From NCBI GenBank assembly GCA_030668875.1, contig DAOVER010000015.1, forward strand, positions 30,001 to 62,000: a stretch of 32,000 nucleotides of DNA, written 5' to 3'. Shown here piece after piece: positions 2,349 to 14,168 of this stretch; position 1 is the first letter of the stretch; each line of letters opens with the position of its first letter. Source of the DNA: Candidatus Heimdallarchaeota archaeon (lineage in GTDB: Archaea; Asgardarchaeota; Heimdallarchaeia; Heimdallarchaeales; Heimdallarchaeaceae). The notes under the pieces were generated by a model, which did not search any database, had not been told where the DNA came from, and saw nothing but the letters and a program-made list of their open reading frames with translations. The position numbers were made by a program, and so were the translations under genes.

Positions 2349-2885
2349 TTAACTTATCTTCTTAAATACCAAAACTTTTTTTGTTTTTTCTTTTAGCTCA
2401 AATAAATTATCTTTTGTTATATTTTGGATTAGTTTTTCTTCGGATATTTGCCATCTTTGTATGGAAATACAACCATCATTCTTTAGAATTCTATACATCT
2501 CCGTTAATACTTTATCAAGAAATTTATTTAGAAAGTGCATGAAACCAAAAAGAAATGCTAAATCAATACTATTGTTATCTAAAGATGTTTCTGTAACATC
2601 TTCTAATAATGGTTTAACATTCTTGACACCAGTTTTATTAATTTTCTTTTCAATTTTTTTAATCGCATAAGGGTTAATATCATTCGCATAAATTATGCCT
2701 TCTTCACCAACGATTTTAGCAGCTGGAATAGTAAAAAAACCCGGACCACAACCAACTTCTAGAACATGTTGACCTGTTTTTAATCCAGCCGGAATGAGCA
2801 GTTTTTTTGGGTTCATAAATAAACTATACATTTTCTCGTGAATAAAAGAAGTCATTACAAAAGCTGTTTTTTCATGAAATGACAT
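2349..2885 (-). CDS. Class I SAM-dependent methyltransferase
   Basis: Motif I VLEVGCGPG, acidic motif ANDIN, EMYRILK. I place the start at ATG 2885 (MSFHEK), just after the upstream gene's stop and a GAGGGGA RBS, rather than at 2933. Confidence 0.8.
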   Translation of the reverse strand: MSFHEKTAFVMTSFIHEKMYSLFMNPKKLLIPAGLKTGQHVLEVGCGPGFFTIPAAKIVGEEGIIYANDINPYAIKKIEKKINKTGVKNVKPLLEDVTETSLDNNSIDLAFLFGFMHFLNKFLDKVLTEMYRILKNDGCISIQRWQISEEKLIQNITKDNLFELKEKTKKVLVFKKIS

Positions 2886-2886
2886 A

Positions 2887-3537
2887 CTATCCCCTCTTTT
2901 CACAAACAAACTCACAATATTCATTGCCTTCAAAAATAGTTTTACCTATTCCATCTCTATGAAATACAACTTTATCAGGGCAATAAATGTTGTACAATGC
3001 ATTATCGACGTTACACATTATCTTTGTAATCTCAGGTACTCCAAGTCTTTTGAAAAGTCCACTATGCATACAGCTTTTAACTCTGAAATGGTATTTTTTC
3101 TCTGAAGATTCAATGATTTCTATTCTATTTGCTCTTGTTGGACCTTCTGCAATCGCTATTTCATGATATTTTTTTAAGTTTTCAAATGAACGATTTGTTT
3201 CAGCATAGCGAAAATTCCCTAATTGAACAGATATTGCTACAGGTGTAATAATAGCTTGAATTGTTGATAAGGCCCTTTTTTCATCGGTCTTTTTCTTTAA
3301 GATCAGATACATTGATGAGATTAAAGCTACTTGCTTTTTTATGTCACCAGGCATTTTTTTTGGTAACTTCCTTTCCAAACTAGGAACTTTCATCAATGTT
3401 TTTATTAGAAACCAAAATGGTCTTTTAATATATCCTATTATTCCTCCATAAGCTATCAGAATAGTCGATGGTTTTGCTTTATTTTCAATAGATGTTTTCA
3501 ACATAGTTGATACCAATATAGGTATATGCGCAAACAC
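2887..3537 (-). CDS. Putative L-2-amino-thiazoline-4-carboxylic acid hydrolase (ATC hydrolase)-like protein
   Basis: C-terminal pattern FRVKSC-x4-F-x2-LG-x-PE-x4-MC-x-VD ... R-x5-TIFEGNEYCEF, with the Cys-Cys-Cys spacing I recall for this family. Confidence 0.55.
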   Translation of the reverse strand: MFAHIPILVSTMLKTSIENKAKPSTILIAYGGIIGYIKRPFWFLIKTLMKVPSLERKLPKKMPGDIKKQVALISSMYLILKKKTDEKRALSTIQAIITPVAISVQLGNFRYAETNRSFENLKKYHEIAIAEGPTRANRIEIIESSEKKYHFRVKSCMHSGLFKRLGVPEITKIMCNVDNALYNIYCPDKVVFHRDGIGKTIFEGNEYCEFVCEKRG

Positions 3538-3620
3538 TTATTAATATTTCTGTATTGAACAAATAATTCTAGGAATATTTCTAAATTCTTTTTCATATTG
3601 TTTAAGTGAATCATTAATTA

Positions 3621-3657
3621 ATTGATGATTGTGTAAAACTCGATGTAAATCAAGGAG
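3621..3657 (+). repeat. Conserved 5' module upstream of P1 (copy 1 of 3)
   Basis: attgatgattgtgtaaaactcgatgtaaatcaaggag; 33/37 identical to the copy at 4336-4372. Confidence 0.8.
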
Positions 3658-4170
3658 TTGCTAAAGATAAACGAAAACCATCTGGAAAAAGTTGGAGATT
3701 TAGTAGATGTAAATACAAGCGATTTAACAAAGAATAGATTCGGTAAAAAAATAACTCTGGTCTATTATTATTTGATACAATTTTCATTCTTCATATTTTC
3801 TAGCTTAGTAGGACTAGTATTTGGTTTGTATAGTAGACCTATTGCTACTTATCCTTATAGTGGGTTTCCTCAAAGATATATTTATGGATCAATAATATTA
3901 GCAATAACTCATAGTGGAAATCTGGGTTTATCCTACCAACTAAGTAGAAAAAAAAGACTGATATTGAGTAAGAGAGAACCTAAGATATTATCACCCCTTT
4001 ATATATATCCAATAATAGTTCTAAATTTAATTATGTCAACAATAAGTCTTTTTTCAACACATAATTTTGTATTTGATGGAAGTATATTCACTATAGGTAC
4101 TTTGTATGGAGTTTATGAAAAAAAGAACTTGAATATTAAGAAAAATTTCAGTAAGATTAAGAATGCATAA
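3658..4170 (+). CDS. Membrane protein paralog P1 of 7 (putative radical SAM substrate; subfamily A)
   Basis: AAGGAG RBS and TTG start. Leader NENHLEKVGDLVDV, three hydrophobic segments, YPY loop, C-terminal LYGVY (Tyr codon 4105) and basic tail. Confidence 0.85.
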   Translation: MLKINENHLEKVGDLVDVNTSDLTKNRFGKKITLVYYYLIQFSFFIFSSLVGLVFGLYSRPIATYPYSGFPQRYIYGSIILAITHSGNLGLSYQLSRKKRLILSKREPKILSPLYIYPIIVLNLIMSTISLFSTHNFVFDGSIFTIGTLYGVYEKKNLNIKKNFSKIKNA

Positions 4171-4335
4171 ACATGAATATACCATTCTGGAAAATAAAAC
4201 TAAACTGTAATTGAGGACTAAAATACTACTCTAAAGATGGTTTAACTATGCAAAAAAATGCTTTATTACTCAAGTTCAAGGAAATTTTTTTATATTCTTT
4301 TGTACACATATAAGTATATAATAAAACAATTGATG

Positions 4336-4372
4336 ATTGATGATTAAGTAAAATTAGATGTAAATCAAGGAG
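4336..4372 (+). repeat. Conserved 5' module upstream of P2 (copy 2 of 3)
   Basis: attgatgattaagtaaaattagatgtaaatcaaggag, preceded by an extra attgatg unit. Confidence 0.8.
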
Positions 4373-4375
4373 TGG

Positions 4376-4816
4376 GTGAGGATAAACGAAGACAAATTAG
4401 AAGAAGTTGGAGATTTAGCAAATGTAAATCCAGATGATCTTAAACAGAAAAGAAAGAAAAAGGTAATAGGACGTCTCATTTTTTACTTTATTCAAATATT
4501 CTTCATTTTATTTTCATCACTACTTGGTTATCTATTTGTTTTATGGGAACACGCTGATAGAACAGCCTACCCCCATGGAATTGCGCCTAGACAGGCATAT
4601 GGTGGACTTTTTACTCTAGTTGGTCTTATTGGTGCTAATGGTACAATTTCCTATTATTATAGAAAGAAAAACAAACTTCGCTATATTGAAATGATACCAG
4701 TTCAAATTGCAAACATTGTAATCTCCTTAATTGGCTTTTATTTTATCTGTGGATTAGTTTATCAACCAGAGGTGTTTGTAGGAACCCCATTATATGGTGT
4801 CTATAGAAAAAATTAG
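4376..4816 (+). CDS. Membrane protein paralog P2 of 7 (subfamily B)
   Basis: AAGGAG RBS and GTG start. NEDKLEEVGDLANV leader, YPH loop, LYGVY (Tyr codon 4793). Confidence 0.85.
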   Translation: MRINEDKLEEVGDLANVNPDDLKQKRKKKVIGRLIFYFIQIFFILFSSLLGYLFVLWEHADRTAYPHGIAPRQAYGGLFTLVGLIGANGTISYYYRKKNKLRYIEMIPVQIANIVISLIGFYFICGLVYQPEVFVGTPLYGVYRKN

Positions 4817-4901
4817 TTTTTCAAAATTTAACTCGCACAAGTTCTAGAAATTTTAAATAATTTTCCATACAGCTACCAGACACTTTGTTTTACAAATTCT
4901 C

Positions 4902-4915
4902 GGAAACCTTTTAAG
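4902..4915 (+). promoter_or_regulatory. BRE/TATA candidate for the P3-P7-rSAM-MTase operon
   Basis: GGAAAC-C-TTTTAAG in the P2-P3 gap, upstream of a tightly packed gene run. Confidence 0.45.
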
Positions 4916-4989
4916 TAATTTTGCATATTTCTTCACAACACATAAAATAATCTAAAGTGCATAATAATCCAAATACAGAATGTGATAAC

Positions 4990-5463
4990 TTGAATAAGGG
5001 AAATGTTGAACAAGTTGGAAAACTTGTTGATGTAGATCCATCTGATATCAAACGAAAGAACAGGCGGAAGGTTACTGGGTATGTGATTCATTACTTTGTT
5101 CAAGTTTTTGTCTTTCTATTATCGTCATTATTTGGTTATTTATTCATTCTGTGGGAAAACGCAGATCAATCAAGTTATCCATATGGAACGTTCCCAAGAC
5201 ACCTCTATTTAGGTCCAATAAGTCTATATGGTCTATTTCAAGGTAATGCCATATTTACCTATTTCCACAGAAAAAAACATAAGTTTCGCAACATTGAAGT
5301 ATTTCCAGTAGTATTTGTAAATCTTATAGTCTCTCTCATAAGTTTCTTCATGATTTTTAACGCAATATACCAAGGCCCAGCTCCTACTTTAGGTGTTGCC
5401 GTTGCTTATGGTATTTATGAAAAGGAAAATCCAAGAAGTTTTAAAAAAGTAATGAAAATATGA
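4990..5463 (+). CDS. Membrane protein paralog P3 of 7 (subfamily B)
   Basis: Alignment with the other paralogs favours TTG 4990 (LNKGNVEQVGKLVDV) over GTG 4957. YPY loop, AYGIY (Tyr codon 5407). Confidence 0.8.
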   Translation: MNKGNVEQVGKLVDVDPSDIKRKNRRKVTGYVIHYFVQVFVFLLSSLFGYLFILWENADQSSYPYGTFPRHLYLGPISLYGLFQGNAIFTYFHRKKHKFRNIEVFPVVFVNLIVSLISFFMIFNAIYQGPAPTLGVAVAYGIYEKENPRSFKKVMKI

Positions 5464-5477
5464 AGGAGTTTACACTA

Positions 5478-5972
5478 ATGAACAAAGAAAAATTATCTAA
5501 GGTAGGAGCTTTAACCGAGTTAAAATCTGAGGATATAACTCCGAAAAAGATTAGAAAGAATTTAACTTTAGCTTATTATTATATTATACAGTTTGTATTC
5601 TTCATATTTTCAAGCCTTGTTGGAGTTGTTTTTGGTTTGTATGGCAACTCTCTTTCTTTCTATCCCTATAATGCTTTTCCTCAAAGATATCTCTATGGAT
5701 CAATAATATTAGCAATAACCCATGGAGGTAATTTTGGTCTATCTTACCAATTAAGTAGAAAAAAAAGGTTGATGTTGAGCAAAAGTGAACCTAAGGTGTT
5801 ATCTCCTGTCTATATATATCCGGCAATTGTTCTAAATTTTCTCCTATCAACAATAAGTCTTTTCTCAATACATAACTTAGTAACCAACGGAAGTCCATTA
5901 ACTATGAATACTCTTTATGGTGTATTTTCTAAAGGAAAATCTAATAGAATTAGGAAAATCATGAAAAAATGA
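5478..5972 (+). CDS. Membrane protein paralog P4 of 7 (subfamily A)
   Basis: AAGGAG RBS overlapping the P3 stop, then ATG 5478 (MNKEKLSKVGALTEL). YPY loop, LYGVF (Tyr codon 5916). Confidence 0.85.
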   Translation: MNKEKLSKVGALTELKSEDITPKKIRKNLTLAYYYIIQFVFFIFSSLVGVVFGLYGNSLSFYPYNAFPQRYLYGSIILAITHGGNFGLSYQLSRKKRLMLSKSEPKVLSPVYIYPAIVLNFLLSTISLFSIHNLVTNGSPLTMNTLYGVFSKGKSNRIRKIMKK

Positions 5973-5986
5973 AAGAGGTTATAAAA

Positions 5987-6484
5987 ATGAATGAAAAGAA
6001 ATTGAATGAAGTAGGGAAATTAACTGAAGTTGATTCTAAAGATATAACTCAAAACAAATTCAAGAAGAAAATCACTTTAATGTATTTCTATTTTATTCAG
6101 CTTGGTTATTTAGCGATCTCAAGTTTAGTTGGATACTTATTTGGTTTGTATAAGAATGCGAATAACAGTTATCCATACAATGGATTTGATCAGAGTTACA
6201 TTTTCGGACCACTTCTCGTAGCTATTATTCACGGAGGCAATCTTGGGATGTATTATGGATTGAATAAAAGTAATAGATTAATTCTGAAAGACGGTACAAA
6301 TGCTAAACCATTACCTTTCCATATCTATCCTGTTGTTTTTCTGAATATACTTCTATCTATATTCTCCTTCTTCTTCATCTATAATGATATGATTAGTGGA
6401 TATGTTTTCACAGCTACAACTGATTATGGTGTATATATTAGAAAGAAAGTTCAATTTCATAATAAGCGAGCCAAAAATAATTGA
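5987..6484 (+). CDS. Membrane protein paralog P5 of 7 (subfamily C)
   Basis: GAGGT RBS then ATG 5987 (MNEKKLNEVGKLTEV). YPY loop, DYGVY (Tyr codon 6425). Confidence 0.85.
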   Translation: MNEKKLNEVGKLTEVDSKDITQNKFKKKITLMYFYFIQLGYLAISSLVGYLFGLYKNANNSYPYNGFDQSYIFGPLLVAIIHGGNLGMYYGLNKSNRLILKDGTNAKPLPFHIYPVVFLNILLSIFSFFFIYNDMISGYVFTATTDYGVYIRKKVQFHNKRAKNN

Positions 6485-6518
6485 TGATAGACCAAAATAG
6501 ATGTAAATATTGGAGGAG
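6480..6518 (+). repeat. Conserved 5' module upstream of P6 (copy 3 of 3, more diverged)
   Basis: attgatgat-agacc-aaaat-agatgtaaat-attggaggag. It overlaps the P5 stop codon. Confidence 0.65.
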
Positions 6519-7034
6519 ATGAAGATAAACGAAAAAAAACTAGAAGAAGTTGGAGCATTAACAGAGGTAGGTTCTGCGGATATAACTAAGAATAAGATTA
6601 GAGCAAAAATCACCTTAGTTTATTATTATCTTATACAACTTGGATTTTTAGTTGTCTCAGGATTTATTGGATATCTATTTGGTATGAACAAGAATACTAG
6701 TTCTGCTTATCCGTATAGTGGATTCGATCAAAGTTACATTTTTGGGTCCATTTTTATAGTAATTGCCCATGGAGGAAATTTCGGTTTATCTTATGGATTG
6801 AGCAAGAAAGACAAATTAATTTTAAAGAAAGGGGCAAATATTAAACTATCTCCTTTCTATATCTATCCTGCAGTTTCCTTAAATTTTGTTTTATCAATAC
6901 TAAGCTTCTTAGCTATCTATAATCTGGTGTTTAGTGGGGATGTTTTCACAACTACAACACGTTATGGAGTATATGAACAAAAGATATGCAAAATCTCGAA
7001 ATGTAAATATAATACTAATAATAAAATGAGTTGA
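6519..7034 (+). CDS. Membrane protein paralog P6 of 7 (subfamily C)
   Basis: GGAGGAG RBS then ATG 6519 (MKINEKKLEEVGALTEV). YPY loop, RYGVY (Tyr codon 6963). Confidence 0.85.
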   Translation: MKINEKKLEEVGALTEVGSADITKNKIRAKITLVYYYLIQLGFLVVSGFIGYLFGMNKNTSSAYPYSGFDQSYIFGSIFIVIAHGGNFGLSYGLSKKDKLILKKGANIKLSPFYIYPAVSLNFVLSILSFLAIYNLVFSGDVFTTTTRYGVYEQKICKISKCKYNTNNKMS

Positions 7035-7039
7035 AATTT

Positions 7040-7543
7040 ATGAACGAAAAAAAGCTCGAAGAAATTGGGAAACTCACAGAAACGGATCCAAATGATTTAG
7101 CAATGAATAAAATCAAGAGAAAAATTTCTTTGATGTTTTATTATATTATACAATTTGTATTTTTAATAACTTCAGGACTGATTGGGTTTATATTTGGTAT
7201 TTATGAAAATGAGATAAATACTTATCCTTATGTTGGTTTTGATAAAAATTACATTATCGGACCTATTCTTGTAGTAGTAGTTCAAGGAGGGAATTTTGGC
7301 ATGTCATATGGACTGAGAAAATCAAACAAATTAATATTAAAAAAGGGAACAGAGACTAAACTTTCTCCTTTCTATATCTACCCTGTTGTTTTTCTAAATC
7401 TGATTTTATCGTTATTGCTGTTTTTATCTATCTATCAGATGTTTGTACCTAGATTTTCTCAAACGACATTCCCAATGTATGGCGTATTTATAAGAAAGGA
7501 ATTAAAAAGTAAAAATGTATTAAGTAGGATTAATTATGTATAG
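7040..7543 (+). CDS. Membrane protein paralog P7 of 7 (subfamily C)
   Basis: ATG 7040 (MNEKKLEEIGKLTET). YPY loop, MYGVF (Tyr codon 7478). Overlaps the radical SAM gene by 8 nt. Confidence 0.85.
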   Translation: MNEKKLEEIGKLTETDPNDLAMNKIKRKISLMFYYIIQFVFLITSGLIGFIFGIYENEINTYPYVGFDKNYIIGPILVVVVQGGNFGMSYGLRKSNKLILKKGTETKLSPFYIYPVVFLNLILSLLLFLSIYQMFVPRFSQTTFPMYGVFIRKELKSKNVLSRINYV

Positions 7544-8600
7544 ACTAGATTGTGCGATTTGGGAACTCACGTTAGCTTGTAATATGAATTGTAAACATTG
7601 TGGGTCAAGTGCTGGAAAAGCTAGAAAAGATGAGCTTTCTTTAGATGAGTGTTACGAATTATGTAAAGAATTTGCAGATGAAGGATGTAACTTAGTTACA
7701 TTGATGGGTGGGGAACCATTTGTTAGAAAAGATTGGAACCAAATTTCTTGGTGTATCAAAGATCTTGGAATGGACCTAGGGTATGTGACAAATGCACTAC
7801 TAGTTCCTAATATCATTGAAGACTTAATTTTACTTGAACCACTGGTTGTCGGTATCTCTTTGGATGGCGTGAAAGAAACTCACGATAGTATCAGAATAGA
7901 AGGGTCATTTGATGCTGTAATTAAGGCATTAGATCTTCTCGAAGAAGCTGGTATTCAAATAACTATAATTACTACTCTAAGCAAAACCAATTTCAAAGAA
8001 TTACGAAAAATAAAAGAAATCATCCAAAATAGAAAAATAAATTGGCAGTTACAAATAGGTTTACCCTTTGGTAACTTTGATCCTGCGCTTACTTTGAGTT
8101 TAGAAGAGTTTTACGCTTCTGCAATGTTTATCACTGCTGAAGGAATTAAGAACAAATTCAGAGAAATGCCTGTAGTTGGAGCACATTGTTATGGGTATTA
8201 TTCCCATCTTCTTCCAAACAACAAAAATTGGAAGGGATGCACAGCGGGTATAAATACGGTAGGAATAACTTCCGATGGTTCAATTGTAGGGTGTTTATCA
8301 ATGGGCAACAATAAATTTATTGAGGGTAATGTCAGAGATCGTAGCTTCTCTGATATCTGGAATGATCCTAATTCCTTTGCATACAATCGGCAATTTACTA
8401 GAGATAACTTAGGTGAGAATTGTGTTAATTGCTTCTATGGTGAAACCTGCAAAGGTGGATGTAATTCTTCTTCTCTTCATCTTACTCACACTTTTCATAA
8501 CAATCCTTACTGTTTCAAGCAAATTGAAGAAAACCTCTTTGAGGTTAAGCCATACCGTAAGGAGATTAAGTGGTTAAAAGAAAAAGGAGTTAAGATCTGA
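7536..8600 (+). CDS. Radical SAM/SPASM domain enzyme, splicease (PlpX)-like peptide/protein maturase
   Basis: C15-x3-C19-x2-C22, GGEP, SLDG and SPASM cysteines (GCTAG...GC...CVNC-x5-CKGGC...NNPYC). Subfamily call rests on recalled motifs WELTLACN..C.HCGS.AGKAR.DELS, WQ.Q...P.GN, GYY and W.GC.AG. Radical SAM-SPASM is certain; the splicease assignment is less so. Confidence 0.9.
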   Translation: MYRLDCAIWELTLACNMNCKHCGSSAGKARKDELSLDECYELCKEFADEGCNLVTLMGGEPFVRKDWNQISWCIKDLGMDLGYVTNALLVPNIIEDLILLEPLVVGISLDGVKETHDSIRIEGSFDAVIKALDLLEEAGIQITIITTLSKTNFKELRKIKEIIQNRKINWQLQIGLPFGNFDPALTLSLEEFYASAMFITAEGIKNKFREMPVVGAHCYGYYSHLLPNNKNWKGCTAGINTVGITSDGSIVGCLSMGNNKFIEGNVRDRSFSDIWNDPNSFAYNRQFTRDNLGENCVNCFYGETCKGGCNSSSLHLTHTFHNNPYCFKQIEENLFEVKPYRKEIKWLKEKGVKI

Positions 8601-9883
8601 TGATAAAACTAAATTTAGGCTGTGGTGTATTCTATAAACCTGGATATGTCAATATTGATTTATCAGAAAAGGATGTAGCTGATGAGGTACAGAATGTTGC
8701 TGAACTTAAGTATGAATCTAATACTGTAGATGTCATAGAAGCATCCCATATTATCGAACACTTCGATATTATTCATCTTCCATACGTTCTTGCAGAATGG
8801 TTTAGAGTACTAAAACCAGATGGGGTTTTATACATCGAAACTCCAAATTTATTGAAATCAATAATTACTTTGAAGCCTAAAAACTATGAGTCAAAGAAAC
8901 TCACATATCAATTTCTATTCGGTATTGATTATGAAGGAAATTCCCACAAAATGGGTTTCACTTCTAAATTTTTAAAGAAATATCTTCTCTCTACTGGTTT
9001 TACAAAGATATCCAAACAAAAGCAAAGAAGCTTCAATTCAGAGAAGAGTATAAGGTACTGTTGCAGGAAACCTACTGATACTCCATTGACGAACAAAAAA
9101 TTCTTTCTAAATCATTTAAGAACACTTATTAAAAATCAATTCGGTTTATCAGATACTCTCTTCTTAGATCATTGTGAGTCAAATTGTATGAGTTTTTTCA
9201 GAAACTTGAAACTAAAAAATGACATGGATAATTTGAACGATGAATTATGCTTAGAACTAATAGCTTCCCTAACACTTTTTAGTCCCAAAGTAGCTAAAAT
9301 CTTCATTAAGCTTTTCTCAGACAACTTGCCTGCTAACATTAATCTTGATATAATAGATTATTTAGATTCAATAGATTTCTCATCTAGAATGTATGAGAGT
9401 TGGAAGAGTTGGATAAAAAATAAAGATGGAACTATGTACGCTGCATTTTATTTCTACAATCACTGGACTTCAAAAATAAAGAAAAATTTGTTAGCAGAAA
9501 CTAAAATTGATGTTATGTATGATTACATTGAATCATTAGATAAAAGTGATTACAATTACTTCTGTTTTGAGCAAGTAAATATCTTATCTCTCAGGACATC
9601 TAATCAAGGTTTACGATACTTCTCCAACAAAAATTTTGAGAAAGCAAAGGAGTTATTTCTAGAAGCATTGAAGCTTCAACCCTATGATCCAGTTTCAAAC
9701 TGGAATCTAGCTAGATTATCTAAAAATTCTGATAACAAAGAAAAGTTGCTCTTCTATTACAAACAAGCAATTATGAATGTCTCATCTAGAAAGCACAAAA
9801 AGAAAATTAGAAAGGAAGTTAAACTTCTTAAGAACGGTAATAGTAAACTAATATCTTCAGAACCTATTCAAATTAGATTCTAG
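8600..9883 (+). CDS. SAM-dependent methyltransferase-like domain fused to a helical region and C-terminal TPR
   Basis: KLNLGCG, VNID, ASHIIEHF, EWFRVLKPDG at the N-terminus. TPR-like NQGLRYFSNKNFEKAKELFLEALKLQPYDPVSNWNLA at the C-terminus. ATG overlaps the radical SAM TGA. Confidence 0.75.
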   Translation: MIKLNLGCGVFYKPGYVNIDLSEKDVADEVQNVAELKYESNTVDVIEASHIIEHFDIIHLPYVLAEWFRVLKPDGVLYIETPNLLKSIITLKPKNYESKKLTYQFLFGIDYEGNSHKMGFTSKFLKKYLLSTGFTKISKQKQRSFNSEKSIRYCCRKPTDTPLTNKKFFLNHLRTLIKNQFGLSDTLFLDHCESNCMSFFRNLKLKNDMDNLNDELCLELIASLTLFSPKVAKIFIKLFSDNLPANINLDIIDYLDSIDFSSRMYESWKSWIKNKDGTMYAAFYFYNHWTSKIKKNLLAETKIDVMYDYIESLDKSDYNYFCFEQVNILSLRTSNQGLRYFSNKNFEKAKELFLEALKLQPYDPVSNWNLARLSKNSDNKEKLLFYYKQAIMNVSSRKHKKKIRKEVKLLKNGNSKLISSEPIQIRF

Positions 9884-9914
9884 CTTTGGAGAAATGGAAG
9901 GTAACTAGTTTCAA

Positions 9915-9933
9915 CTATCTCTAAATTAGATAG
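9915..9933 (+). terminator. Small hairpin after the MTase-TPR gene (possible terminator)
   Basis: CTATCT-ctaaatt-AGATAG 6-bp stem. There is no clear T-tract. Confidence 0.2.
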
Positions 9934-9950
9934 GAGATATATCAAATCAA

Positions 9951-9963
9951 ATAAACTTATAAA
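9951..9963 (+). promoter_or_regulatory. TATA candidate for the glycyl radical enzyme operon
   Basis: ATAAAC-TTATAAA about 40 nt upstream of GTG 10001, with a GAGGG RBS between them. Confidence 0.45.
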
Positions 9964-10000
9964 TCTTCTAAACAAAATCTCTCGAAAAGAGGGCATTTTA

Positions 10001-12400
10001 GTGACAAAAGCTATTAAGGACACAGATAACATCTGGCAACCATCTGAAAATCTTAGTCCGAGAATAAAAAGATTAAGAGATGAATATTTCTCCTTTTACG
10101 AACGTTATGATTATTATACGAATGAAGTTCGCCCTTACACAACAGGTACTTCTTGGGATGATGTTTATAGTTATACTAACTGGGGAGCAGCTCCTGAGGG
10201 GCTTGACTTTTTTCCAGGTTATAAAGACAATCTACGCTCTTTAGCTGAAAAGGTTGAATTTCCTAATGAGTTCTATAAATTATCTATTGCTGAAAGAAGA
10301 GCTCATTTCTTAAACAAAGTTGTTGAGAAAAATCTCCCTGCTATTATCCTTAAAGGTGAATTAATTATAGGAAGCCATTTCAGTACAGCTTTAAGTAGAA
10401 CTCTTACAAAATCTGAAACAAAGAAGTGGTCAAAAGATCAGAATAAATACTTCAAGGAGTTAGTTTTTAGATGTGAAACTGGGGAATTTAACTATGGTGC
10501 CATTCCTGGTCATCTAATTCCAAACTATGAAAAAGCTATAAAGATTGGTTTCTCTGGTATTCAAAAAGAGTTGAAGGAATTAAGAAAATCTCCAAAGAAC
10601 AAAGAACATTCTCAATGGCTTGATGCACTCATTGAGTCTTGTGAGGTCCCTAAACTGCTTGCTGAACGATATTCTAAGGAAGCAGAGAAACTAGCTAAAC
10701 TGGAAAAGGACCCTAGTAGAAAATCTGAGCTTCTCTATCTCTCTCAAATTTGTAAAAAAGTTCCTTGGGAGCCTGCTGAATCTTTCTGGGAAGCTGTACA
10801 ATCTCTTTGGTTTACTCATATTTTAGTTATGGCAGCTGAAAGCTATCCTGGACCAGGAACAAGTCCTGGACGAATTGATCAGTATCTCTACCCTTACTTT
10901 AAACAAGATATTGACAACGGAAAAATAGATTATGATTTTGCAAAGGAGATCTTAAGTTGTTATTGGATTAAACACAATTATGCTTATGATTTTCAAGGAC
11001 AAGTTGGAAATTCTCAAGGAATAAATTCTAGTTTTGGTCAATTAATTACTCTTGGTGGAATAGATGAAAATCATGAGGATGCATCAAATGAATTAACACT
11101 TTTAATGTTGGATATAATCGATGAAATTAATCTTCTTGAACCCAAGCCTAATGTAAGAATTCATGCGAAGACATCAGATAAAGTCGTGAAGAAAGTTGCT
11201 GAAATGATTGTTAAATCTCAAGGAAGTCCATTCCTGATGAATTTTGACGAAACAGCTATGAAAGGACTGATTTGGCAAGGTATACCTGAGGACGAAGTTT
11301 GGAATTATGGTCCCGTTGGTTGTCTAGAAAATACTATGATTGGTAATGATGTTTCCGGAACCGTTGATGTTAATGTTAACATTGCTAAGGCAGTTGAACT
11401 AACATTGTTCAATGGTAAAGATCTCCAAACAAAAAAGCAAGTAGGACCAAAAACAGGAAATCCAAAGAAATTCAAAACATTTGATCATTTTAAAGATGCA
11501 TACATTAAGCAACTCACTGCCTTGCTAGATAGAGCTATTGACGCAAATAATCATGCTGATATGATAAGAGCAGTTTACGAGCCTGTTCCGTATGTTTCTC
11601 TATTAATCGATGGATGTGCAGAATCTGGCAAAGATTGTAGAGCTGGAGGAGCTAAATATAATTTCATAACGGTCGAAGCTTTAGGTTTAGCAAATGTCGC
11701 TGATTCTCTAGCTGCTGTTAAAAAACTTGTTTATGAAGAAAAAAGAATAACAATGGATCATCTTCTAAAAGCTCTTAAGAAAAATTATGAAGGATATGAA
11801 GAAACTAGACAACTACTGCTAAATCATGCTCCTAAGTATGGTAATGATGATGATTATGTAGATAGTATCGCACGAGAGATTTCTCAATATTGGGGGATCT
11901 ATGTTTCAACAAAAACTTCCCCTATTACTAACAGACAGTATCGTGGTGGTTATCTTTCTTGGAATTATTTCATTTCTTTTGCACCCAAAACTGGAGCTCT
12001 TCCAGATGGTCGTCCAAGAGGAGCTTACTTATCGGGTGGTGTTGGACCAACTCAAGGTGTTGATACCAGTGGTCCAACAGCTTCTATAATGAGTGTTGGT
12101 AAACTTGGCGTGGAAGTACAACCTAATGGATCATCTCATACAATGTCATTTAGCCCAGCAAGTCTTCGAGATGAGGAACATGTAGAAAAACTCATTGCAC
12201 TTCTTAGGGCCTATGGGCATGTTGGGGGAACTGCGTTACAAACAAATGTTGTCAGTATTGATACACTCAAGAATGCTCAAACTGATCCAGAGAAATATAG
12301 AAACCTCTTAGTACGAGTTACAGGATATAATGCGTATTTCACAACCTTAGGAAAAGAACAACAAGATGAGATAATTGCAAGAGAATCTCATAAAGTCTAA
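10001..12400 (+). CDS. Glycyl radical enzyme (PFL2/dehydratase-lyase-like; substrate unknown)
   Basis: C-terminal LLVRVTGYNAYF (Gly775), active-site loop GCLEN (Cys441), SPGRIDQYLYPY, GALPDGR. 799 aa. Confidence 0.9.
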   Translation: MTKAIKDTDNIWQPSENLSPRIKRLRDEYFSFYERYDYYTNEVRPYTTGTSWDDVYSYTNWGAAPEGLDFFPGYKDNLRSLAEKVEFPNEFYKLSIAERRAHFLNKVVEKNLPAIILKGELIIGSHFSTALSRTLTKSETKKWSKDQNKYFKELVFRCETGEFNYGAIPGHLIPNYEKAIKIGFSGIQKELKELRKSPKNKEHSQWLDALIESCEVPKLLAERYSKEAEKLAKLEKDPSRKSELLYLSQICKKVPWEPAESFWEAVQSLWFTHILVMAAESYPGPGTSPGRIDQYLYPYFKQDIDNGKIDYDFAKEILSCYWIKHNYAYDFQGQVGNSQGINSSFGQLITLGGIDENHEDASNELTLLMLDIIDEINLLEPKPNVRIHAKTSDKVVKKVAEMIVKSQGSPFLMNFDETAMKGLIWQGIPEDEVWNYGPVGCLENTMIGNDVSGTVDVNVNIAKAVELTLFNGKDLQTKKQVGPKTGNPKKFKTFDHFKDAYIKQLTALLDRAIDANNHADMIRAVYEPVPYVSLLIDGCAESGKDCRAGGAKYNFITVEALGLANVADSLAAVKKLVYEEKRITMDHLLKALKKNYEGYEETRQLLLNHAPKYGNDDDYVDSIAREISQYWGIYVSTKTSPITNRQYRGGYLSWNYFISFAPKTGALPDGRPRGAYLSGGVGPTQGVDTSGPTASIMSVGKLGVEVQPNGSSHTMSFSPASLRDEEHVEKLIALLRAYGHVGGTALQTNVVSIDTLKNAQTDPEKYRNLLVRVTGYNAYFTTLGKEQQDEIIARESHKV

Positions 12401-12414
12401 AGAGCAAATCTCTA

Positions 12415-13368
12415 ATGTCAGTAAACCAAAACCTTTCAGGTAGAGTATTAAACATCCAACGATTCTCAACAGAAGATGGACCTGGTATCAGAACAACCAT
12501 TTTTCTTCAAGGTTGTGCGTTACGATGTAAATGGTGTCAGAATCCTGAAAGTTGGTATTTAAAACCTCAATTAGTATGGTACGATGATAGATGTATAGCA
12601 GCTAAAGATTGCTTATTAGCATGTCCGGAGGATGCACTAGACCTTACAGCTGAAGGAATGGTTATTGATAGAGAAAAATGTACGGGTTGTGGGAAATGTG
12701 TAGTAGCATGTCCAACAAAATCATATGAAATTATGGGGAAAGAAATGTCTGCAACAGCAGTCATTAAACAAGCTTTACGTGACAAAACATTCTATGAACA
12801 ATCTGAAGGTGGAGTGACAATTTCAGGAGGGGATCCTCTCTTTCAGCAGAAATTTAGTCTGGAAATACTTAACTCCCTAAAACAAGAAGGAATTCACACT
12901 GCAATTGATACAACAGGTTTTTCTAAACCAGAAGAATTTCAGCAATTGGTGGATCTTTCTGATTTAATACTTCTAGACTTCAAACAGATGAACCCTAATT
13001 TACACAAAGAATTTACAGATGTAGATTTAGATAAAATTCTTACAAACGCTAAATGGTTGGGTGTACAAAAAAAGAAAGTTTGGATAAGAACTCCAATTAT
13101 TCCCGAGTATACAGATCAAGAAGAGAATATAATTGAAATTGCTAAATTCATAAAAGAGAATATGAGTGATGTTGTTGAAAGATGGGATCTACTAACTTAC
13201 AATAATCTATGTGTTTCAAAATGGAAAAGATTAGATATTTGTTATGAATTAGAACATTTACCTTTAGTAACAACATCAAAAATCCAGAAACTTGCAGACT
13301 TAGCAAAAGAGTCTGGTGTGCCTGTCACTTGGACAGGAGTCTTACAAAAAAATGAAAATGATGGATAA
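12415..13368 (+). CDS. Glycyl radical enzyme activating enzyme (radical SAM, long form with ferredoxin insertion)
   Basis: DGPGIRTTIFLQGCALRCKWCQNPES, insertion CIAAKDCLLAC...CTGCGKCVVAC, GGVTISGGDP, WIRTPIIP. Lies directly downstream of the GRE. Confidence 0.92.
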   Translation: MSVNQNLSGRVLNIQRFSTEDGPGIRTTIFLQGCALRCKWCQNPESWYLKPQLVWYDDRCIAAKDCLLACPEDALDLTAEGMVIDREKCTGCGKCVVACPTKSYEIMGKEMSATAVIKQALRDKTFYEQSEGGVTISGGDPLFQQKFSLEILNSLKQEGIHTAIDTTGFSKPEEFQQLVDLSDLILLDFKQMNPNLHKEFTDVDLDKILTNAKWLGVQKKKVWIRTPIIPEYTDQEENIIEIAKFIKENMSDVVERWDLLTYNNLCVSKWKRLDICYELEHLPLVTTSKIQKLADLAKESGVPVTWTGVLQKNENDG

Positions 13369-13376
13369 GAGTAAAA

Positions 13377-14168
13377 ATGAAATTAACAGAAAAAGCAAAA
13401 GAAGCATTTAATATCTTTGAAGCTGCTAAATTTATGGCAACTAAAGATGAGGCTAACATCCCTAATATTGCTATGATCGCAACCTTAAGTCCATGGGGTG
13501 AAGATGAACTAATCTTTGGAACATTTTTAATGTGGCAGACTGAGAAGAACCTTCGAAGTGGTTCTCCTGTTACTGCTAGTGTTATGACAACTAACTTTGA
13601 TAGTTATCAAGTAAAGGGAGAATTTCTAGGTTTCGAGAAGCAAGGTGAAAAATTTGATACTTTGAGTAATTTAGATCTTTTTAGATATTCAGCTATCGGT
13701 CTTCTTAGATCAGTTGGAACTATTGCAGTTAAAGAAGTTAAACCTCTCAATTTAAGTTTGTTTTCCGTAGCACGAGAGTGGATGTCAACAAAATTTGGTG
13801 GTAAAAGACCAAAAGATTTTCCGGAAGGTAAAAAAGCTAATCCAATAGTTGTTAAGAACACAAGCGTCCTGATGGGTGCCAAATATCTTACCGTCATAAG
13901 AGACAACGAATTAGAACAGTTTCCAGTTCTTGGGATGAGACCCGTAGAAGATTATTTAGCGATTAGAGCTGATTTACCTTTAGAAGTAGGAGAAAATGTT
14001 GCAGTATCTTCTTTCAACCTTGGTCTTAAAGCATATCAGTTTAAAGGAACATATCAAGGTGTAAAAAGAGCTAGAGGTATCACTTTAGGTTACGTAAAAG
14101 TAGATAGAATACTTTCACAGACTCCTCCTTTAGTTTCTAAAGAGGTTCCTTCAGATAATTTCAATTAG
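13377..14168 (+). CDS. Pyridoxamine 5'-phosphate oxidase-like (split-barrel) protein with two tandem domains
   Basis: FMATKDEANIPN...QTEKNLRSGSPV...SYQVKG is echoed by KYLTVIRD...ENVAV...AYQFKG. Confidence 0.65.
   Translation: MKLTEKAKEAFNIFEAAKFMATKDEANIPNIAMIATLSPWGEDELIFGTFLMWQTEKNLRSGSPVTASVMTTNFDSYQVKGEFLGFEKQGEKFDTLSNLDLFRYSAIGLLRSVGTIAVKEVKPLNLSLFSVAREWMSTKFGGKRPKDFPEGKKANPIVVKNTSVLMGAKYLTVIRDNELEQFPVLGMRPVEDYLAIRADLPLEVGENVAVSSFNLGLKAYQFKGTYQGVKRARGITLGYVKVDRILSQTPPLVSKEVPSDNFN

Follow-up and report, generated by a model that had tools for sequence, protein, structure and literature searches.

The 32,000-nucleotide window analysed here, from a Candidatus Heimdallarchaeota archaeon genome (GenBank assembly GCA_030668875.1, contig DAOVER010000015.1, positions 30,001 to 62,000 of the forward strand), carries a compact cassette in which seven paralogous genes for membrane proteins are followed by the gene for a radical S-adenosylmethionine (SAM)/SPASM maturase, referred to as P0001, and by a methyltransferase gene. 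Our results indicate that the seven paralogues are very probably the substrates of P0001, and that the residue modified is probably a tyrosine near their C-terminus that is invariant throughout the family. The P0001 clade forms a distinct, uncharacterised group next to the spliceases; its membrane-protein precursors are unusual and it has a methyltransferase dedicated to it, and for P0001 itself the evidence read from sequence reaches no further than “splicease relative”.

The last five precursor genes, the enzyme gene and the methyltransferase gene are tightly packed, with overlaps of 4, 4, 4, 8 and 1 nt and a 25-nt gap between the fifth and sixth precursor genes (P5 and P6, Table 1). In a search of the source genome the seven paralogues were found only at this locus, and the enzyme was single-copy. 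A scan of species-representative genomes returned 79 loci with a P0001 homologue, and the hosts of the clade comprise Asgard archaea (Heimdallarchaeota, at 85-88% identity, and Prometh-, Hod-, Hel-, Hermod- and Thorarchaeota), other archaea (Thermoplasmatota, Undinarchaeota and Nanohalarchaeota) and some bacteria (some Elusimicrobia, Chloroflexota of the class Chloroflexia, and Margulisbacteria); the enzyme of the cultured Asgard archaeon Promethearchaeum syntrophicum MK-D1 is 64% identical to P0001. A conserved cassette of one to seven precursors, the radical SAM enzyme and a ~430-aa methyltransferase with a helical-repeat domain was retained in six Asgard lineages, in Thermoplasmatota and in bacteria of three phyla. 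The family was present in 66 of 300 sampled Asgard genomes, in 20 of the 89 high-quality ones and in 8 of 21 genomes of the same genus, a patchy occurrence; the system is accessory rather than housekeeping. No description of the cassette was found in the literature searched (spliceotides, DUF1843/TIGR03913, and Asgard radical SAM enzymes for peptides that are made on the ribosome and modified after translation, RiPPs), the main splicease survey lying outside that search, so that an earlier listing is possible. Scott et al. 2022 (Chem) reportedly classified the splicease types, with archaeal clusters included. According to a later paper, that survey detected both bacterial and archaeal spliceotide clusters (PMC11626197).

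All seven window paralogues have an N-terminal leader that is shared family-wide (hydrophobic-x-x-hydrophobic-G-x-x-hydrophobic-(G/D/E/N)-hydrophobic-x3-(D/E)-hydrophobic), a Y-P motif and a core of the form x-Y-G-(V/I)-(Y/F), in which the residue X before the Tyr is, from P1 to P7, L, L, A, L, D, R and M. No Pfam or NCBIfam family matched them above cut-off, Nif11, NHLP and DUF1843 included. Of the 1318 same-strand open reading frames (ORFs) that lie no further than 3.5 kb from the enzyme, 85 have both leader and core, compared with 1 of 3276 elsewhere, and such ORFs were present at 48 of 83 loci; the patterns were drawn up after inspection of the data, so the exact ratio is optimistic, although the contrast is very large. 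In subclade 1, which includes the window, the core reads x-Y-(G/N/D)-V-(Y/F) and is preceded by one to three hydrophobic segments and the invariant Y-P; when 37 precursors of this subclade were aligned, only the Y-P of the first loop and the core Tyr were invariant, and the Val at position +2 from the Tyr was at least 90% conserved. Subclade 2, hosted by Thorarchaeota, many Thermoplasmatota, Elusimicrobia and, as a second copy, Promethearchaeota, has the core Y-x-x-G-x-x-Y-(G/S/A/Y)-(T/S)-(I/V)-x-x-x-D-F in precursors of 57-170 aa, some of which are soluble and some of which have one hydrophobic segment or a lipobox-like Cys. The core Tyr was found in 90 of 90 family precursors, with 3-27 residues following it. 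Each window paralogue shows two strong hydrophobic segments and one weak segment, with basic residues on both sides, and the precursors may be modified before membrane insertion.

Several precursors elsewhere in the family have layouts of their own. A Thermoplasmatales peptide (L053:5591-5848) consists in part of three tandem Y-K-A-G-T-x-Y-G-T-(V/I)-S units, and a 168-aa protein (L006:7488-7994) has two G-Q-A-I-K-Y-N-V-Y units and two G-Y-P-F motifs. In two Elusimicrobia precursors (L071:8527-8838 and L086:6096-6428) the leader is followed by a lipobox-like segment with a Cys and by the core G-Y-P-C-G-T-R-Y-Y-T-V-S-P-x-D-F, an arrangement which suggests that the modified C-terminal part is exported and lipid-anchored. 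A Helarchaeota locus (L004:5109-7988, on a contig shared with L033) encodes three short soluble precursors of 46, 54 and 65 aa with G-Y-P-(F/Y) and x-Y-G-V-Y and without the usual leader, together with a separate 346-aa tetratricopeptide repeat (TPR) protein upstream of the methyltransferase.

P0001 is a member of the radical SAM/SPASM superfamily. A Pfam scan returned Radical_SAM at residues 10-160 (81.5 bits) and SPASM at residues 235-299 (38.1 bits), both above cut-off, with nothing beyond these two domains and no RiPP recognition element (RRE) domain. Judged by these limits, the protein begins at the radical SAM core and stops ~28 residues past the last SPASM cysteine (C326), in agreement with the compact architecture described in the original prediction, a model's reading of the window made from sequence alone. 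All of the motifs quoted in that reading were found in the translation, including the CxxxCxxC segment (C15, C19, C22), VTLMGGEPFVRKDW, WQLQIGLPFGN, GYY, the WKGC...GCLS segment, GNVRDRS, CVNC-x5-CKGGC and NNPYC. More than 1500 homologues were found, of which the best 120 listed were mostly 53-68% identical (two at 83-87%) and 330-370 aa long, and the AlphaFold2 model had a mean predicted local distance difference test (pLDDT) score of 90.7; taken together, these results show that P0001 is a real gene rather than a chance frame. The solved folds closest to the model were PqqE, SkfB, SuiB, anSME, CteB and ChlB, which are mostly peptide- or protein-modifying SPASM/twitch enzymes. Some orthologues contain in-frame stops (two TGA and one TAG in G297:C18:19177-20229, one in others) and may be decaying copies or errors of metagenome assembly. 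Radical SAM frames of 597-673 aa at loci L031, L032 and L052 were considered as fusions and taken instead for upstream read-through.

Against NCBIfam, the top match of P0001 was TIGR03913 (200.4 bits, residues 7-331; curated equivalog cut-off 591.75), followed by TIGR04103 (189.8 bits, residues 2-329; cut-off 725) and then by TIGR04133 (138 bits), AhbD (127), MftC (124.9; cut-off 265) and NirJ (123), with the best-matching stretch of AhbD, MftC and NirJ restricted to the N-terminal half of P0001. The 25 best families also included the cross-linking maturases WgkB (111 bits) and DynA (76), and no triceptide maturase family was among them. All 37 tested family members matched both TIGR03913 and TIGR04103 with the best E-values of any family. 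The two families that the original prediction had named were thus the top two matches and aligned end to end; because the scores amount to ~1/3 and ~1/4 of the respective cut-offs, however, P0001 is a member of neither equivalog, being neither a PlpX nor a GDL-type enzyme. Its closer fit to the splicease families than to heme- or PQQ-type enzymes was borne out, as shown by 200 and 190 bits compared with partial matches to AhbD and NirJ, and by the position of NirJ and PqqE in the tree described below.

The tree was built with annotated enzymes from plasmid records, with Nostoc TIGR04103, Burkholderia and Azospirillum GDL-type, Aureibacter DUF1843-associated and Tropicibacter enzymes as splicease references. 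The P0001 family formed one clade (support 100/99) and the splicease references another (100/99), and both fell within a superclade (86/79) together with an Agathobacter/Paraclostridium group and TIGR04133; NirJ, MftC, TIGR04053, TIGR04347, PqqE and a Microbulbifer enzyme were placed outside it. A grouping with the Ahb/NirJ enzymes, named beforehand as the outcome that would speak against the assignment, was seen neither in the tree nor in the coverage of the hidden Markov model (HMM) matches. Nine positions of P0001 are splicease-like (L13, G23, G27, W170, Q171, Q173, G220, W232 and G252), each of which is conserved in five of five splicease references and in 90% or more of 76 family members, and in at most one of seven other SPASM enzymes. 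Whereas the cluster cysteines are universal, G23 was present in all five splicease references and in none of the seven other SPASM enzymes, and W170-Q171-x-Q173 was conserved in at least 99% of the 76 family members.

Table 1. Features of the precursor-maturase-methyltransferase cassette, in positions of the window.
Feature	Position	Strand	Basis
Precursor paralogue P1, 170 aa, core L-Y-G-V-Y	3658..4170	+	Alignments, leader and core motifs
Precursor paralogue P2, 146 aa, core L-Y-G-V-Y	4376..4816	+	Alignments
Precursor paralogue P3, 168 aa, core A-Y-G-I-Y	4957..5463	+	Alignments, motifs
Precursor paralogue P4, 170 aa, core L-Y-G-V-F, 4-nt overlap with P3	5460..5972	+	Alignments, motifs
Precursor paralogue P5, 171 aa, core D-Y-G-V-Y, 4-nt overlap with P4	5969..6484	+	Alignments, motifs
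Precursor paralogue P6, 174 aa, core R-Y-G-V-Y	6510..7034	+	Alignments, motifs
Precursor paralogue P7, 170 aa, core M-Y-G-V-F, 4-nt overlap with P6 and 8-nt overlap with the radical SAM gene	7031..7543	+	Alignments
Radical SAM/SPASM maturase P0001, one open frame, 354 aa	7536..8600	+	ORF and translation
Radical SAM cluster motif C15-x3-C19-x2-C22, then G23	7578..7601	+	Translation
W170-Q171-x-Q173 motif, in common with the splicease clade	8043..8054	+	Conservation comparison
SPASM region, eight Cys (218, 235, 253, 296, 299, 305, 309, 326), two auxiliary Fe-S clusters	8187..8513	+	Translation, invariant alignment columns, Pfam SPASM
Class I SAM methyltransferase (~residues 1-160) with all-helical TPR-like domain, 427 aa	8600..9883	+	Pfam Methyltransf_11/23 and TPR; first base overlaps the radical SAM stop codon

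The third member of the cassette is found within a few kb of the radical SAM gene (usually less than 2 kb) in 64 of 83 loci, and among 30 orthologues it is conserved over its whole ~430 aa, the helical domain included. Its AlphaFold2 model had a pLDDT of 91.9, and a fold search returned only generic class I methyltransferases at TM scores of 0.2-0.3. LahSB, a RiPP C-terminal methyltransferase, appeared at rank 11 with a root-mean-square deviation of 22.7 Å, and no functional assignment was drawn from it. The Elusimicrobia methyltransferases are shortened to 206-357 aa, with much of the helical domain lost.

Within positions 3537-10001 the + strand ORFs of at least 50 aa comprise only the seven paralogues, the radical SAM gene, the methyltransferase gene and a 54-aa frame (8413-8577) nested in the radical SAM gene; this list contains no PlpY-like or PqqD helper. 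In a genome search, Pfam PqqD (PF05402) matched two other contigs and nothing else, within a 462-aa frame of C33 and, weakly, on C96, and Y proteins are so divergent that a miss by an HMM is not proof of absence. Both results agree with the earlier observation that no small PlpY-like ORF lies in the cluster. The C33 frame (G000:C33:6253-7416, − strand, locus L001), which is 25% identical to P0001, is a separate RRE-fused radical SAM/SPASM maturase. According to Richter et al. (PMC11414181), spliceotide pathways outside the original cyanobacterial type all lack a Y protein, and in the RhaX/RhaA binary system the leader helix fills the enzyme site that is taken by the Y protein in ternary systems. 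Because binary spliceases with direct leader binding are already published (PMC11414181), the missing RRE is unsurprising and not a novelty of P0001. Of the compact, RRE-independent splicease that had been predicted, the missing RRE domain and the missing PqqD-like neighbour stand, whereas RRE independence is no longer new and splicing is argued from homology.

Modelling of the enzyme-substrate complex, which the original prediction had called for, was consistent with direct recognition. Two-chain prediction of P0001 with P7, with SAM and three clusters included, gave ipSAE values of 0.60, 0.60 and 0.55, compared with 0.00 for the best of three controls, with contact agreement of at least 68% and a partner pLDDT of at least 61. 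Of 80 solved complexes, 58 reached the mark for a complex, as did 2 of 110 mismatched pairs, but values of 0.60 or less include only 7 of the 80 solved complexes and both of the mismatches. The prediction is a pass, albeit a weak one, and it lends weak support to direct binding of P7 by P0001.

We tentatively propose the following mechanism. P0001, which is without an RRE, would bind its precursors directly through their shared N-terminal leader, as in the published binary spliceases, and its 5'-deoxyadenosyl radical would act on the invariant Tyr of the core x-Y-G-(V/I)-(Y/F). A tyramine unit would then be excised, such that the variable residue X becomes an alpha-keto-beta-amino residue, after which the methyltransferase would modify the same precursors or help to hold them. 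Tyramine splicing appears to be the most likely outcome because of the homology to spliceases, and for the whole chain, splicing by P0001 included, our confidence is a little short of even. Among known or annotated splicease substrates, a core resembling that of the window paralogues is present in a Nostoc Nif11 precursor (...L-Y-G-L) and in Burkholderia DUF1843/DUF1842 proteins (P-Y-G-V and M-Y-G-V), and the PlpA3-derived splice tags, as printed, read ...G-Y-G-V-V-F-P, with an engineered Gly at X (PMC10533398). A fuller version of the proposal is more doubtful: a single-component archaeal splicease would put alpha-ketoamides in the tails of membrane proteins, the seven paralogues would provide warheads with varied side chains (Leu, Ala, Asp, Arg, Met), and the methyltransferase would finish the product.

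A further core of this kind was observed on an Agathobacter rectalis plasmid (NZ_CP143948.1, L010:3713-3919, + strand), where the closest bacterial relative of P0001 (37% identity), itself followed by a major facilitator superfamily (MFS) transporter, has immediately upstream an unannotated small ORF ending in ...G-P-V-M-Y-G-T-G-V-R-M. This ORF may encode an X-Tyr-Gly precursor in a Firmicute of the human gut.

The binary (type II) spliceotide systems RhaX/RhaA, RasX and RcsX of Rheinheimera (PMC11414181, PMC11626197) likewise employ a radical SAM/SPASM enzyme without a Y/RRE protein; their leader helix binds the enzyme, an X-Tyr-Gly with variable X lies near the precursor C-terminus, and the precursor genes adjoin the enzyme gene. 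The kinship of P0001 to these enzymes was judged via the TIGR04103 and TIGR03913 references only. In contrast to the Rheinheimera systems, P0001 forms part of a separate clade and, at 354 aa, is the shorter enzyme, the window precursors are membrane proteins of 146-174 aa whose leader is unrelated and which have Y-P as a second invariant motif, the cassette has a dedicated ~430-aa methyltransferase-helical protein, and the Gly is not invariant family-wide. The TIGR03913 GDL-motif maturases of Burkholderia, Azospirillum and Aureibacter have W-Q-x-Q, C-x2-C-G, G-Y and W232 in common with P0001, their DUF1843/DUF1842 precursors carry x-Y-G-V, often in tandem copies, and in the Aureibacter cluster a class I methyltransferase comes right after the enzyme, as it does in the window. 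Those enzymes, however, are 474-516 aa long with a C-terminal extension that P0001 does not have, and the DUF1843 precursors, unlike the window paralogues, are soluble helices in which the Tyr is close to the N-terminus and G-D-L comes after it; a Burkholderia precursor matched PF08898 at 92.7 bits, whereas the seven paralogues had no Pfam match above cut-off. The type I enzymes of TIGR04103 (PlpX/PcpX) have the same signature positions as P0001 and, in Nostoc, an XYG site near the precursor C-terminus, but they depend on a Y protein (in Nostoc the gene after the enzyme encodes 71 aa), of which there is none at the window cluster, their precursors have Nif11/NHLP leaders, and these systems are cyanobacterial, whereas that of the window is archaeal.

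A number of observations weigh against splicing. On the enzyme side, the TIGR03913 and TIGR04103 scores are far under the equivalog cut-offs, and in the tree the P0001 family lies nearest to TIGR04133 and to uncharacterised enzymes of Firmicutes, the splicease clade joining at the next node out. The branching order within the superclade is not settled, and a topology constrained to unite the family with the splicease clade to the exclusion of the others costs 9.1 log-likelihood units (approximately unbiased test, p = 0.09) and is neither rejected nor favoured. About 12 family-conserved positions differ from all splicease references (for example I145 vs N, and A216-H217 vs G-N), and no solved splicease was returned by the sequence or fold search of the PDB, in which the top sequence match was SkfB (1.7e-14). 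On the precursor side, the Gly that helps to define the published XYG site is found in all seven window paralogues but follows the core Tyr in only 63 of 90 family precursors, the others having Ser (8), Ala (6), Tyr (5), Asn (4) or Asp (4), and in MK-D1 three paralogues with Y-G, Y-N and Y-D (L022 8429-9843) are accompanied by one enzyme. Position +2 (V/T/S) shows stronger conservation than the Gly and fits a cross-link motif at least as well, and neither the second invariant Tyr, that of Y-P, nor the methyltransferase has a role in the splicing model. Furthermore, neither a two-helix nor a three-helix topology of the paralogues satisfies the positive-inside rule, and the access of a cytoplasmic enzyme to the motifs is left unexplained.

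Because the Gly varies, the +2 position is better conserved, and the second Tyr and the methyltransferase are unexplained, a cross-link at the invariant Tyr is a serious rival to its excision, with the same cassette and the same substrates, even though we consider it unlikely. The product would be a C-C or C-O bond in one of two forms, either a three-residue cyclophane from the Tyr ring to the beta-carbon of the Val/Thr at +2, resembling triceptides or the Val-Tyr chemistry of MftC, or a bond that joins Y-P to Y-G-V, the two invariant Tyr motifs. With +1 variable and +2 always V, T, S or I (the pattern allowed only these residues, and the alignment is the cleaner evidence), an aromatic-X-X3 motif fits better than a strict XYG, and in subclade 2 the two Tyr motifs are 5-6 residues apart (Y-P-x-G-x-x-Y-G-T), which suggests that they may act jointly. 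MftC is a detectable relative of P0001 (125 bits), and its substrate MftA ends in G-V-Y. Like the triceptide maturases, MftC is a radical SAM/SPASM enzyme whose target is an aromatic residue within a short, Val-containing motif at the C-terminus; the triceptide motif aromatic-X-X is fitted by the Y-x-(V/T/S) of the precursors, yet P0001 has no RRE domain, and the known triceptide and MftC systems use RRE domains or an MftB partner, neither of which is present here. The MftC target is, moreover, the last residue at the extreme C-terminus, whereas 3-27 residues follow the Tyr of the window family; a variable X before the Tyr is typical of spliceotides; and P0001 is closer to the splicease families over its full length (200 and 190 bits) than to MftC, WgkB (111 bits) or DynA (76 bits).

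Another alternative, compatible with either chemistry, is that P0001 alone cannot recognise its substrates and that the TPR-like domain of the methyltransferase, or co-localisation at the membrane, replaces the RRE. TPR-like repeats commonly bind peptides, the methyltransferase-helical protein stands beside the enzyme in 64 of 83 loci with its helical domain conserved too, and the cassette is retained, with an additional TPR protein, where the Helarchaeota precursors (L004) have no leader motif. We nevertheless regard this route, which the original prediction had offered for substrate recognition, as improbable, the conserved N-terminal leader being a simpler one: the leader is conserved in both subclades, including the soluble precursors of 57-70 aa; binary spliceases bind the leader directly (PMC11414181); the Elusimicrobia methyltransferases of 206-357 aa miss much of the helical domain; and the two-chain prediction of P0001 with P7 already passes, weakly, without the methyltransferase. 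Finally, P0001 could act on a small molecule, either as an AhbC/AhbD/NirJ-type enzyme of cofactor or tetrapyrrole synthesis or as a SPASM enzyme of another such kind, and lie next to the paralogues by coincidence. In favour of this reading, AhbD (127 bits) and NirJ (123 bits) are among its weaker matches. It is nevertheless extremely improbable: AhbC, AhbD and NirJ reach 108-127 bits against cut-offs of 500-650 with the best stretch at residues 7-169 only, NirJ, TIGR04053 and TIGR04347 are outside the superclade, the precursor-enzyme-methyltransferase cassette is widely kept, the patchy occurrence is unlike that of a core cofactor pathway and no heme or PQQ genes are adjacent; a heme- or PQQ-type function was rejected on HMM coverage, tree placement and gene context.

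Downstream of the cassette, positions 10001-14168 of the window (+ strand) encode a 799-aa glycyl radical enzyme, the 317-aa activase of this enzyme and a protein of 263 aa, and at the Helarchaeota locus L004 a PFL-like glycyl radical enzyme lies ~5 kb from the cassette; the glycyl radical genes probably reflect unrelated neighbourhood conservation among Asgard genomes. Two genes that run divergently from the first paralogue lie upstream of it (2349-3537, − strand) and encode a 194-aa class I methyltransferase and a 216-aa protein of the ATC-hydrolase family. A scan of the window for sigma-70 promoters and terminators gave counts equal to those of shuffled sequences, and the sigma-70 consensus has no relevance to an archaeon; a look-up of RNA evidence for the locus listed none.

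If splicing by P0001 is true, ribosomal formation of beta-amino acids (ketoamides) would extend beyond bacterial peptides to archaeal membrane proteins, and it would be the first protein-backbone splicing to be shown for membrane proteins and for the Archaea, here within the lineage that is closest to eukaryotes. The enzymes of the family would then be naturally minimal spliceases (337-354 aa, with no helper), of interest to protein engineers. If the chemistry is of another kind, the cassette would represent an uncharacterised Tyr-directed modification that about one in five of the sampled Asgard genomes share with many Thermoplasmatota and some bacteria. In either case, the precursor family and its methyltransferase partner are missing from Pfam and NCBIfam, and the system is directly testable because it is present in the cultured Asgard archaeon MK-D1.

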